A stretch of 64,000 bases of DNA from the NCBI GenBank assembly GCA_964347045.1, contig CAYFXC010000003.1:115722-179721 (forward strand), read 5' to 3'. The notes beneath the pieces are model-generated. The model was not told where the DNA came from. It saw only the letters and a program-made list of their open reading frames with translations, and did no database searches. Source of the stretch: an uncultured archaeon. Lineage in GTDB: Archaea; Asgardarchaeota; Hermodarchaeia; Hermodarchaeales; Hermodarchaeaceae. The translations under genes were made by a program, and so were the position numbers. This document shows, one piece after another, positions 2,551-6,361 of this stretch. Position 1 is the stretch's first letter. Each line of letters starts with the position of its first letter.

Positions 2551-3485
2551 CAATGTCGTGCGGTTGTTACGGTGCATCCGTTTTTTTCTACTATTAATGT
2601 GTGTTCAGCCTGGGCAATAGGGCTTCCATCCTTTAATCCTAATACTGAATAATTATGAATGCATCCCTCTCGTTTAAGCACGTTTAGTATTTGGGCTACT
2701 TTGTCTGGTTCTACTAGCTCAGCCATCCAACGGGACGCAAAAGGTAATTGACTAAATTTAATTTTCATCTGACTAAAAAGAGAGCGTAATTTGGGATCCT
2801 TTGGATTTCGCACGTGAGTAAATCCAAAAATATGCCCTGGTTCCAAATTATCAACATGAGGATTTTGGCTATAAGTGGCGAAGGGTTCAATAGCTACAAC
2901 CATGTTTTCCTTTAACCGAGGCGAGCTTGTACGTTCCGTTGCGTATGTCACCGAAGGAACAGATATTCCAGCATGAAGATTAAATTGTTCGATACTATGG
3001 CCTGTGAGGTTTTCAATCGGGCGCGTTTTCATCTGTTGCATTGCGGCTGAAATGGCTTTAGATACATTCCAAATGCGGATTCCTGCTCGAACGGTGTTAA
3101 TTGCTGCCTCCAAACCTGCTTCTGCTCCATCAATAAGCTGTTGAAGGCCTTCATCATCACCGACTAAAACAGTTCGAGCATTATCTGCAACAAAACCATC
3201 TATGTGTACACCCAGATCAATCTTTACGAGAGCAATATCCGGAATTTGCGTAGAATCATCTAAGCTTGGTGTATAATGAGCCGCATGATGATTTATCGAG
3301 ATGTTAATAGGAAACGCAGGTTTTCCACCAAGGCTTTGGATTTTAGTTTCTCCTGCTTCAGCAATTGAATATAATGGTTCACCTGCTTTTACGAGATCAC
3401 AAGAAAATACTAGTGCTTCCGAAGCGATTTTTCCAGCACGCTGTAATTTTTCGCGTGTTCGTTCAAACATTGCCATATCACGCAT
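2550..3485 (-). CDS. map: Type II methionine aminopeptidase
   Basis: AFPINIS..AAHYTP, KIDLGVHIDG..AD, NLTGH...LHAG, AIEPFAT and AQAEHT motifs. Confidence 0.95.
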   Translation of the reverse strand: MRDMAMFERTREKLQRAGKIASEALVFSCDLVKAGEPLYSIAEAGETKIQSLGGKPAFPINISINHHAAHYTPSLDDSTQIPDIALVKIDLGVHIDGFVADNARTVLVGDDEGLQQLIDGAEAGLEAAINTVRAGIRIWNVSKAISAAMQQMKTRPIENLTGHSIEQFNLHAGISVPSVTYATERTSSPRLKENMVVAIEPFATYSQNPHVDNLEPGHIFGFTHVRNPKDPKLRSLFSQMKIKFSQLPFASRWMAELVEPDKVAQILNVLKREGCIHNYSVLGLKDGSPIAQAEHTLIVEKNGCTVTTARH

Positions 3486-3540: not shown

Positions 3541-3664
3541 ATTTGTCGTTGACTTTAATTTAGGTATTACTCCTAGTTTAGCTAAAGGTCAAAAAGAGTT
3601 AAGAATAGACTTTCCAATGGTTAAGAAAGGTGGATGTAAGCCACTTACCTCGGGGGCTCCGAAT

Positions 3665-6361
3665 GTGACTACATTAGCAGAGCTTCGCAAGTACTACTCC
3701 ATGCTAAAAGATATTAGTGCAAAATGTCGGACAATTATGGGTGGTCTCCCTTCTGAAATTAAAACCTCATTGGAAGATGTGGGACGGGAACTTGTAAGCC
3801 TAGAAGGTTTTGATAGGGATGCAAAAACGAGTTGGTCCCTAAGTCCGAAAAAACGTCGTCTTATAAAGCAAATTGATCAAGGGCTGCCAAAAATCGATGA
3901 AGATCTCTCTCGTTCACTTCGACTTCACATTGAGCTGTTGAAGACTTACATGACTGAGCTTGAAGAGCTAAAAGCAACAATAATGACTTTTGATATTAAA
4001 CTAGGACGTGATCTCAACAATCTCACCTTTCCTTCGACACAAGGGGGACATTCAGTTGTTTTGCCGGTTCTTTCACGATTTGTAGCTAATTTTGAAGGTC
4101 TTTCTAAACAATTACGTGACGCTCTACTAAAGCAAACGAATGATATGCTTGAACAAAATCGGGCGTTGATTAAAACCTACGATCGGTTTGTTGGTATTGA
4201 CACGAGTGATGTTTCAATTAGTGCCGAGCGGGAAACTGTTGATGTGAGTACTATCCCGGAGCTTTTTGAAATTCGCAAGACACTACGCCAAGAGCATGAA
4301 TATCTCACAAGTCGACGTGGCGAAGTTGTTGATACATTACGAGCGAAACTGCAAGCTAGTATTGAATCCTCCGTATCCCTCTTAGAGACTGCTCGTAGTT
4401 TGAGTCTCAAAGTTCCTATGGCTATTTCTACATCACTTGAAGCGCTGAAAAAACAACTCAAAGGTGAGACTAATCTCACCACACTTCTCGGGTTGGTTCA
4501 ACAATATGATGGGCAAGTGTTAAAAGCCTCAAGTGAAGTCAGAAGCCAAATACTTGAATTTGGTCATAATCTTAACCGCATTCTTGCTAGCGCTAATATC
4601 GCTAGTGAAGCCACTTTTCTTCCTCCTTTACCTCCTGAAGTTCCCAAAGATGCGGATTTAGCTGCGCTAGTTGCAAGCTATGAACGCCTACAAGCATACC
4701 ATACCAATGTTGAAACAGCTATCCGTGCTGAGATCATGCGTATAGTAGATGATTTGACTCGTGCTGTAAAACGGAATGTGCTTCCAAACACTGCGGAACT
4801 AGATAAATTCGTGAAAAATGAATCGAAAAAGGTAAAGAAAGGAGATCTGAAAGTTCTTGTCAAGGTATACTCCGAGGTTGCGGCTCAAATAATTGATGAA
4901 CATGGAAAATTACTAGCTGAAATTAGAACTCAAGAAGCTTTACTAACTCGAATCTCAGAAACCGCTAGTACAATTCTTGATAAAACCACAATGGGTGCAG
5001 CTCCTGCTCCTGTTCGAACCACAGACATTAGCTTCCCTGAGTTGGTTGAGGCGTATGCAAGACTACGAAAGCATGTTGAGAATCGGATCGATCTGTTCCG
5101 AAAAGCTTGGGAACGTGAACTCAACGCGCTTCTTGCTGAAATCCAAGTGATAAAACCAACCTATCGGGAATCTTTCAAAACCATGGAAGAATTTTTGGAA
5201 AGTGCTATTGCACATATCCGCGCTAGTACTAGTTTCGAGGAAATTGAAGAAGTCGCCCGTGAGGCTCAAGGAGATGCTCTATATAAAGCGCAAGACGCCA
5301 TTGAAAATCTCAAATATCGCCTAGATCTCAAACTGCGATTGGCGGTTTCAAAACTTTTAGGTATGGGGTTAACTATTCCTTCGGAAGTCCAGTCAGCCAT
5401 TCAAGAACTGACAACGGTGGTCCCCGCTAGTGAAACCTATGAAGAAGCGATTCGTAAGGCCCATCACATTGTTGAACTTTTCGAAAAACGAATTGTGGGA
5501 TACTTCAACCAGACTCTTAATGAACAAATCAAAGCCTTCTCAGAGTTAACAAGCGTGTCTGCTTCCTTGGGCATCAAAACAGACTCTTATGTCAAAGAAT
5601 CAATGAAACTGCAGGACAAATTACCCGCAAATATTGAGGAACTCCCTGACCGGTTCGACGAACTTCGTGAATTACTTACCGACCCTAAGTTGCTTAAGGA
5701 TATCCGTTCGAAAGCCAACGAAGTCTGGCGAAATCTCAATTCAGTTACTGATCTTCTTGAACGTCATGGACAAGCCGAGATTGTAGCTAAACTAAAGGAT
5801 CTGCTCGCTCGTGTTCCCGACGCCTTAGAAGCTGAACAAGTAAACACTGTTCTTGAAATTTGTATGGCTCTCATTGAAGCGCAAAATAGTGTACTTGATA
5901 TTCTTCGCAACATGGAGCAAAAGACTGGACAAGCATACGAGCAGTTATTAGAAAATACTACCGAATACTACTCAACGATTAAAAGAGTATACGCGGCACG
6001 ACCGCTTGAATTTAGCAAAATCATATTTCCGTTAGATACTTTGCAGAATTTGCGTGGAAAATTAGAAACCGTTAATTCTCTACCCGAATCTATTGATATA
6101 TTCACAACCATCCGCAGTTTAGAACAGCAATGGTTAGAAAAAATCAAAGAGCTTGATGAATGGCACAAGGCGCTCCGCGTTTTCCTCGCTGACTTTAATC
6201 CAGCGGCGCCTAAAGCTGAACGTAATCGTCAACTCAACGAAATCGAAAAAAGAATTCGCGAAACCTATACGCGCGAGGATACTGCAAACTACCTCACTTG
6301 GGCTGCCAGAGAACTTGCAGCTGTCATGATCGAACAAAAAACAAAAGCAAAGAAAAAATAG
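3665..6361 (+). CDS. Large all-alpha-helical repeat / coiled-coil protein (~898 aa), first gene of the tubulin operon
   Basis: L/E/K/R-rich amphipathic helices throughout, with no TM segment and no Walker A. Start placed at GTG 3665 after GGGGG; the upstream ORF extension overlaps map. Confidence 0.8.
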   Translation: MTTLAELRKYYSMLKDISAKCRTIMGGLPSEIKTSLEDVGRELVSLEGFDRDAKTSWSLSPKKRRLIKQIDQGLPKIDEDLSRSLRLHIELLKTYMTELEELKATIMTFDIKLGRDLNNLTFPSTQGGHSVVLPVLSRFVANFEGLSKQLRDALLKQTNDMLEQNRALIKTYDRFVGIDTSDVSISAERETVDVSTIPELFEIRKTLRQEHEYLTSRRGEVVDTLRAKLQASIESSVSLLETARSLSLKVPMAISTSLEALKKQLKGETNLTTLLGLVQQYDGQVLKASSEVRSQILEFGHNLNRILASANIASEATFLPPLPPEVPKDADLAALVASYERLQAYHTNVETAIRAEIMRIVDDLTRAVKRNVLPNTAELDKFVKNESKKVKKGDLKVLVKVYSEVAAQIIDEHGKLLAEIRTQEALLTRISETASTILDKTTMGAAPAPVRTTDISFPELVEAYARLRKHVENRIDLFRKAWERELNALLAEIQVIKPTYRESFKTMEEFLESAIAHIRASTSFEEIEEVAREAQGDALYKAQDAIENLKYRLDLKLRLAVSKLLGMGLTIPSEVQSAIQELTTVVPASETYEEAIRKAHHIVELFEKRIVGYFNQTLNEQIKAFSELTSVSASLGIKTDSYVKESMKLQDKLPANIEELPDRFDELRELLTDPKLLKDIRSKANEVWRNLNSVTDLLERHGQAEIVAKLKDLLARVPDALEAEQVNTVLEICMALIEAQNSVLDILRNMEQKTGQAYEQLLENTTEYYSTIKRVYAARPLEFSKIIFPLDTLQNLRGKLETVNSLPESIDIFTTIRSLEQQWLEKIKELDEWHKALRVFLADFNPAAPKAERNRQLNEIEKRIRETYTREDTANYLTWAARELAAVMIEQKTKAKKK

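Follow-up and report, generated by a model that had tools for sequence, protein, structure and literature searches.

Introduction

Which protein works together with Asg.Tub, the divergent tubulin homologue of Asgard archaea, and what would such a partner do on a filament? Work on the Asgard cytoskeleton has so far been centred on the filament formers themselves, namely lokiactin, OdinTubulin, AtubA/B as well as FtsZ1/2, and to our knowledge almost nothing is known about the proteins associated with these filaments. Here, a stretch of 64,000 nucleotides (nt), called the window in the following, was analysed, which belongs to the assembly GCA_964347045.1 of an uncultured archaeon of the Hermodarchaeaceae (contig CAYFXC010000003.1, positions 115,722 to 179,721; contig C3 in our numbering). 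The source genome is metagenome-assembled, comprises 2.58 Mb and is 89% complete. Within the window, the gene of a helical protein of 914 amino acids (aa), which we call the rod after its inferred elongated shape, lies directly upstream of the Asg.Tub gene. An earlier note, made from the DNA letters, had described it as a protein of about ten cryptic ~65-aa helical repeats and had raised the known rod-shaped partners of tubulin and FtsZ as possible relatives.

Our answer, to which we assign a probability of roughly 0.6, is that the rod is a spacer, tether or cross-linker of the kind of a microtubule-associated protein (MAP), anchored via its conserved C-terminal domain to the side of an Asg.Tub filament. 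This would provide an orphan Asgard tubulin homologue with a concrete partner of defined architecture, in which a binding region is predicted and specific residues can be targeted by mutation, and would thereby make the function of Asg.Tub testable in vitro without a cultured host. Throughout, rod residues are numbered from the ATG at window position 3617, i.e., 84 less than the numbers on the longer open reading frame (ORF) from 3365 used in the earlier note.

Linkage of the rod to the tubulin

The 'Asg.Tub' group has been named by Santana-Molina et al. (2023; PMC9871819), and its gene neighbours have been described there as unknown genes, mostly with coiled-coil regions. The tubulin of the window belongs to this same group, and the rod family, its repeats, the strict co-occurrence and the binding region are not defined in that study. 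The tubulin is identified by PF00091 (2.8e-18), the GGGTGCGG signature and an FtsZ-like T7 motif, D278-x-x-D281; its best match in the PDB is CetZ (4b46, 7e-10), covering the N-terminal GTPase domain only. A canonical FtsZ is encoded elsewhere in the source genome (contig C1, 101667-102146; PF00091 at 7e-47), so the Asg.Tub system exists in addition to the division FtsZ.

An even sample of 201 Asgard genomes from 27 GTDB families was surveyed with profiles of the rod and the tubulin. The rod profile is present in 77 genomes and the tubulin profile in 76, both being present in 74. Furthermore, both proteins are confined to the same eight families (f1, f5, f6, f8, f14, f15, f21 and f26), and neither was found in the other 19 families of the survey. 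The rod gene lies upstream on the same strand and ends within ~100 nt of the tubulin start in 69 of the 74 genomes; the remaining five comprise one gap of 550 nt, one of 4.3 kb and three fragmented assemblies in which the two genes fall on separate contigs. In one family, three genomes (G135, G138 and G183) carry two rods as well as two tubulins, and in five of these six pairs the rod stands beside its own tubulin (the sixth pair is ~10 kb apart), which indicates that the pair was co-duplicated.

The order rod, tubulin, ~350-aa helical protein is also kept amid unrelated flanks in the loci L016-L022, which include Heimdallarchaeota LC_3 as well as Thor- and Loki-labelled metagenome-assembled genomes. 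The rods of these loci share ~20-30% identity, in comparison to the 50-62% that the tubulins retain across classes. Within the genus (L002-L015), the identity amounts to 93-97% for the tubulin, 83-91% for the rod, 73-83% for the third gene and 64-82% for the neighbouring genes of a peptidase, an AIR-synthase-related (AIRS-domain) protein and TldD. The tubulin is under unusually strong constraint. For the linkage itself the comparison within the genus is uninformative, since the whole region is syntenic.

A partnership between the rod and the tubulin-family protein next to it, as had been suspected from the sequence, is thus supported by co-occurrence, fixed adjacency, co-duplication and a complex model which passed its controls and is described below.

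Predicted contact between the rod and the tubulin

The C-terminal contact of the rod comes from a structural model. Here, a tubulin monomer and rod residues 742-914 were predicted as a complex in three runs and with three controls, using our own alignments. The interface score ipSAE was 0.68 in the three runs versus 0.00 for the best of the three controls; 58 of 80 solved complexes attain a value of 0.68, as do 2 of 110 mismatched pairs, a scale that is only approximate with own alignments. The runs share at least 66% of their contacts, and the predicted local distance difference test score (pLDDT) of the partners is at least 85.

On the side of the rod, the predicted contact lies where the family is most conserved (W849, near H850, I880 and Y892); these four residues are invariant. 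Conservation is higher at the contact residues than elsewhere in the domain, with a mean top-residue frequency of 0.57 versus 0.45. The contact residues of the tubulin include the invariant Q310, furthermore D297 and G305 (at least 90% each) as well as Y317 (83% of rows). The contact stretch of the tubulin, residues 297-321, follows just past the T7 motif and may correspond to the S7-H9/M-loop region. Mapping it onto a solved structure by sequence failed, and since only the GTPase domain aligns to CetZ, the assignment is derived from the position of the D-x-x-D of T7 alone. Taken as a prediction, the complex model supports binding between rod and tubulin without demonstrating it.

A repeat of two-unit blocks

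The AlphaFold2 model of the whole rod, built on 18 homologues, is entirely helical with a mean pLDDT of 86.1 and a predicted template modelling score (pTM) of 0.39, a value which fits a long multi-domain chain. Residues 340-672, folded separately, reached a pLDDT of 86.4 and a pTM of 0.67. The ten hexapeptides that the earlier note had picked out as recurring motifs are all present at the residues it had given on its ORF (Table 1). Every one of them is a helix N-cap, because the long helices of the model start one residue after the first residue of each motif, at 213, 287, 348, 411, 473, 540, 608, 673, 742 and 822. Across the 18 homologues the motif columns read [S/T/D/N]-hydrophobic-x-[E/D]-hydrophobic-hydrophobic, which is a capping box with a hydrophobic staple. 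The turns LSLKVP, MGLTIP and SLGIKT, likewise noticed before, lie at residues 262, 583 and 650, at the C-terminal ends of long helices.

In the model, the long helices span ~35-49 residues (typically ~40) and are separated by conserved Gly/Pro turns, and a unit is composed of one such helix and either a helix of 12-23 residues or a loop. Within the first half of the array, a short helix and a ~20-residue loop take turns as connector, resulting in a two-unit period. Of the proposal of about ten ~65-aa repeats, the repeat stands and the count does not: since the same pattern runs on toward the N-terminus with helix starts at 77 and 145, there are ~12-13 units, preceded by the first helices of the N-terminal bundle.

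Structural alignment with VIA, performed for the full model and the fragment 340-672, returned many small antiparallel three-helix bundles at a root-mean-square deviation (rmsd) of 1.8-3.3 Å. The matching segments (237-314, 361-430, 486-568, 626-693 and 689-775) straddle the unit borders, so each three-helix bundle is predicted to be packed from the rear half of one long helix, the connector that follows and the front half of the long helix after it. These matches, the ~40-residue helices and the Gly/Pro turns agree with the earlier suggestion of serial helical bundles rather than a single long coiled coil.

Is the repeat statistically real? It could be argued that no true repeat exists and that the protein is merely all-helical, with generic capping boxes recurring by chance at roughly even spacing. 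The tests on single sequences fit this view: a BLASTP self-comparison gave no internal match in the rod or in nine homologues, and pairwise Smith-Waterman alignment of ten segments gave a mean of 27.9, equal to the forward-versus-reversed control (28.0), though above shuffles (z 6.8), an excess that shows only amphipathic-helix composition. A hidden Markov model (HMM) made from four units is not decisive, as it scores the untrained units at 4-10 bits versus up to 7.3 bits for decoys. On the level of profiles, in contrast, alignment of the family profile with itself by hhalign gave off-diagonal scores of 104, 80, 79, 73, 69 and 67 (E 9e-11 to 2e-6) versus 66, 55, 53 and 51 for the reversed profile (best E 2e-6). 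A shift by two units pairs the helix starts to the residue (213 with 348, 287 with 411, 348 with 473, 411 with 540 and 473 with 608), and shifts of one, three, four and five units yield similar in-register pairs. Profiles of unit versus unit have a mean score of 14.1 against 12.1 reversed (Mann-Whitney p 3e-4), the best pair reaching 88% probability; a block-shuffled profile was uninformative as a control, since identical blocks re-align.

The clearest evidence for the repeat is provided by tandem copies of one block in the long homologues. These proteins have 1,140-1,405 residues, and the extra 243-495 residues, corresponding to about 4, 6 or 8 units, sit between the units 348-410 and 411-472. 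When an HMM is built from short-form rods only, it gives 2-4 tandem matches per long homologue over one and the same block, which corresponds to rod residues ~250-383 (HMM positions ~231-367; independent E-values between 8e-5 and 2e-13). The proteins matched in this way are P0016, P0020, P0021, P0023, P0024, P0026 and the 1,396-aa protein of Heimdall LC_3. Furthermore, the whole-genome profile searches gave overlapping double rod matches inside single ORFs of ~1180 aa. Because of the in-register self-alignments above the reversed control and the tandem blocks of the long forms, the repeat is real, with a profile-level signal that is positive but modest, and a chance recurrence of capping boxes is very improbable. 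This gives the internal repeat proposed earlier its statistical support, on the level of profiles and with negative single-sequence tests.

The evolutionary module is two units (~130 aa), and the length of the rod varies by whole modules, which agrees with the best self-alignment being the two-unit shift. The rod represents a clean natural example of rod length evolving by the addition of two-unit blocks. Two members of the family, P0015 and P0018 (1,023 and 1,029 aa; of the type found in G018, G029, G039 and G048), carry a tandem duplicate of the N-terminal ~150-residue domain and not of mid-rod blocks.

The rod gene and its family

The true start of the rod gene is either the ATG at 3617 or the GTG at 3665, the latter being assumed in the earlier note. 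A TTG at 3365 is not credible, because an ORF starting there would overlap with the divergent M24 peptidase gene (minus strand). The alignment of homologues sets in at residue ~18-23, and the closest relatives conserve residues 1-17, of which residues 1-15 have a pLDDT below 50 in the AlphaFold2 model.

The family has 26 representatives (P0002-P0027) among 1.8 billion proteins, with homology over the full length including the C-terminal W-H...Y block. In the source genome, within its 89% completeness, no second copy was found; the other ORFs of ~970-990 aa in the window, considered as paralogues, are MacB/FtsX permeases and no relatives. Outside of the C-terminal region, a lesser peak of conservation lies in the first unit of Table 1. 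In the N-terminal domain, the third helix opens with KKR(K)L, a strongly conserved basic motif at which nucleic acid, a membrane or an acidic partner could be bound.

A Pfam scan of 18 members at E<=10 gave no family model that fits the rod, the candidates MetOD2 (2 of 18 members), ATG17_like (1 of 18) and Baculo_PEP_C (4 of 18) being below the cut-offs, inconsistent and regarded as helical noise. A single-sequence search of the PDB returned no match and a profile search only designed helical repeats (best E 4.6e-4), and the protein is not described in full-text literature searches or in the recent Asgard papers that were consulted. The rod family is an undescribed family of Asgard archaea, having neither a Pfam model, a solved relative nor a description in the literature searched.

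Table 1. Features of the rod-tubulin locus and its surroundings in window coordinates; the number after an N-cap motif is the rod residue at which it begins.
Feature	Start	End	Strand	Remarks
M24 peptidase gene	2550	3485	-	divergent from the rod gene
Rod gene	3617	6361	+	914 aa plus stop; alternative start GTG 3665
N-terminal helical-bundle domain	3674	4048	+	residues 20-144
KKR(K)L motif	3848	3868		residues 78-84, in the N-terminal domain
Unit 145-212	4049	4252	+	conserved patch 181-200, near-invariant N181
Unit 213-286	4253	4474	+	N-cap TIPELF, 212; turn LSLKVP
Duplicated two-unit block	4364	4765	+	residues ~250-383; 2-4 tandem copies in longer homologues
Unit 287-347	4475	4657	+	N-cap NLTTLL, 286; loop-type connector
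Unit 348-410	4658	4846	+	N-cap DLAALV, 347
Unit 411-472	4847	5032	+	N-cap DLKVLV, 410; loop-type connector
Unit 473-539	5033	5233	+	N-cap SFPELV, 472
Unit 540-607	5234	5437	+	N-cap SFEEIE, 539; turn MGLTIP
Unit 608-672	5438	5632	+	N-cap TYEEAI, 607; turn SLGIKT
Unit 673-741	5633	5839	+	N-cap NIEELP, 672
Unit 742-821	5840	6079	+	N-cap QVNTVL, 741
Most conserved region of the rod family	5957	6316	+	residues 781-900, with W849, H850, I880, Y892
Last unit and terminal helix, 822-914	6080	6358	+	N-cap SLPESI, 821
Predicted tubulin-binding surface of the rod	6158	6286	+	residues 848-858 and 879-890
Divergent tubulin/FtsZ-family GTPase, Asg.Tub type	6374	7723	+	449 aa; begins 12 nt past the rod stop
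Predicted rod contact on the tubulin	7262	7336	+	tubulin residues 297-321
Third conserved gene of the cluster	7751	8761	+	~336-aa helical protein, no Pfam family; basic KSRKRK patch
Coiled-coil protein gene	8758	9369	-	203 aa
Two MacB/FtsX-type ABC permeases	14648	22352	+	969 and 992 aa; one ATPase gene per permease

Proposed role and alternatives

In the proposed arrangement, an N-terminal bundle would be followed by about ten to eleven units of ~61-80 residues and by the conserved C-terminal helical domain. Each unit would begin with an N-capped helix of ~40 residues, continue with a Gly/Pro turn and end in a connector, either a short helix or a loop, and adjacent units would share their long helices, forming a chain of stacked three-helix bundles whose length evolves by duplication of the two-unit block. 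As a dedicated partner of the adjacent Asg.Tub GTPase, the rod may dock with its C-terminal domain (W849/H850 and T883/Y884) on the side of the C-terminal domain of the tubulin. From there it would extend away from the filament and act as a spacer, tether or cross-linker, a role comparable to that of PRC1/MAP65 on microtubules and of EzrA on FtsZ. The N-terminal bundle with its KKR(K)L motif would then be free for self-association, the product of the third gene or another surface.

Several points weigh against this proposal. Adjacency among related genomes is not independent and the counts overstate the independence, although the linkage pattern is consistent across eight families despite this kinship. 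The tubulin is less conserved at its contact residues than over the remainder of its length (0.55 versus 0.69), the score of the complex is the model's own confidence, and the prediction comprises a single rod fragment and a tubulin monomer rather than a filament. Lastly, the similarity between the units inside the short form itself is weak on the level of sequence.

Instead of a structural element, the rod could be a regulator of assembly, which sits on the lateral face of the tubulin and blocks bundling, caps or sequesters subunits, or positions the filament, like inhibitors of the EzrA or stathmin type. The predicted contact on the C-terminal domain of the tubulin, beside the T7/H8 region, would suit such a function, as would the single conserved binding region that is evident per ~900-aa protein, and the structural role could then fall to the third conserved helical gene. 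A regulator, however, has no need for a rod of ~900-1400 aa that varies by whole two-unit blocks, and the data do not distinguish activation from inhibition; we consider this explanation unlikely. The rod could also build a scaffold or filament of its own (intermediate-filament- or crescentin-like) or a membrane-associated lattice, in which the tubulin is not bound directly and is perhaps bridged by the product of the third gene. Such a scaffold is quite improbable, given that the controls stayed far below the complex model, whose contact lies at the invariant residues of the family, and that the short helices, broken by conserved turns, are unlike those of coiled-coil filament formers.

A wider picture can be drawn, which we put forward tentatively and with the odds somewhat against it. 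Several Asgard lineages, with families of the Hermod-, Thor- and Hodarchaeales type, might hold a self-contained and so far undescribed cytoskeletal module, made of a CetZ- or tubulin-like filament former, a dedicated, length-adjustable rod binding the lateral face via its C-terminal domain and a third helical adaptor. This module would be an archaeal system of filament and MAP that has arisen independently of the eukaryotic MAPs and the bacterial EzrA. How far filaments stand apart from each other, or a filament from another structure, would be set by how many two-unit blocks the rod contains.

Third gene and further neighbours

In L020, L021 and L022, the gene that immediately follows the tubulin is a homologue of the third conserved gene of the cluster (phmmer, 3.5e-14 to 7e-40), whose conservation spans Heimdall-, Thor- and Loki-labelled loci. 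The 203-aa coiled-coil gene converges on this third gene with an overlap of 4 nt and is conserved in the genus; no homologue stands at the same position in L020 or L022, so the coiled-coil gene probably does not belong to the core of the cluster.

Upstream of the rod, a gene for a WD40 beta-propeller protein of ~630-650 aa is found in divergent orientation in two Thor/Loki-labelled loci (L021, 1185-3065, minus strand; L022, 1080-3050, minus strand), and L019 carries two genes of Arf/Ras-like small GTPases. The two MacB/FtsX-type permeases of the window, although similar in size, are unrelated to the rod; one of the associated ATPases carries a C-terminal zinc ribbon.

Comparison with known helical rods

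The earlier note had named EzrA, spectrin, PRC1 and the gamma-tubulin complex proteins (GCPs) as candidates for a homology. The comparison of the AlphaFold2 model by Foldseek gave no significant match to any of them: against the PDB, neither the whole model nor the fragment 340-672 found anything at E<=0.001, and the first-ranked row for the whole model, PRC1 (4l3i), is weak (E 0.07) and falls to E 1.8 with the fragment. The candidates of an ESM Atlas shape search (template modelling score 0.09-0.16 by query) are of unrelated families and were discarded, and the wide VIA searches gave generic three-helix bundles and designed proteins, with the rows of EzrA, PRC1 and GCPs within the noise. The families of the spectrin repeat (PF00435), EzrA (PF06160) and PRC1/MAP65/Ase1 (PF03999) have no match in the 18 members at E<=10, the GCPs are not among the Pfam rows at this cut-off either, and the spectrin repeat is absent from the PDB profile search as well. 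A cluster of EzrA appeared in a language-model feature search of the C-terminal domain of the rod with 0.77, below the noise mark of the tool.

A true, very distant homology of the rod to EzrA, PRC1/MAP65 or spectrin-repeat proteins is therefore hardly credible: the sequence signal in Pfam and the PDB is missing and the fold values remain below the noise marks of the tools, with an rmsd of 14-21 Å. Also the architecture differs, since the spectrin repeat has ~106 aa with three long helices, in contrast to the ~65-aa unit of the rod with one ~40-residue helix and a short connector. What both have in common are successive three-helix bundles joined through continuous helices. EzrA of the Bacillota (4uxv) is a rod of serial triple-helix bundles on the tubulin homologue FtsZ, and a conserved C-terminal region takes part in the interaction. 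An N-terminal transmembrane anchor of the EzrA type is absent from the rod, whose first 19 residues, polar, basic and disordered, contain no hydrophobic stretch.

The longest VIA alignments were obtained with BibA (6poo, 225 residues), EbhA (2dgj, 211 residues) and Embp (6gv5, 117 residues), all of which are serial-bundle rods. Here, as in the Asgard rod, small three-helix bundles are strung together. Ebh has a super-repeat of ~126 aa consisting of two bundles, comparable to the ~130-aa two-unit block of the Asgard rod.

With regard to the function, PRC1/MAP65/Ase1 is a possible analogue as a spacer or cross-linker. It is a helical rod of bundle domains as well, and touches the tubulin polymer through a helical domain at its C-terminus; for the Asgard rod, a C-terminal contact with the tubulin is predicted. 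The size of the units and the helix pattern are different, the sequence and the fold give no significant match, and its partner is the microtubule, whereas that of the Asgard rod would be a CetZ-like tubulin homologue. The Asgard rod may resemble the known rod-shaped partners of tubulin-family filaments in its function.

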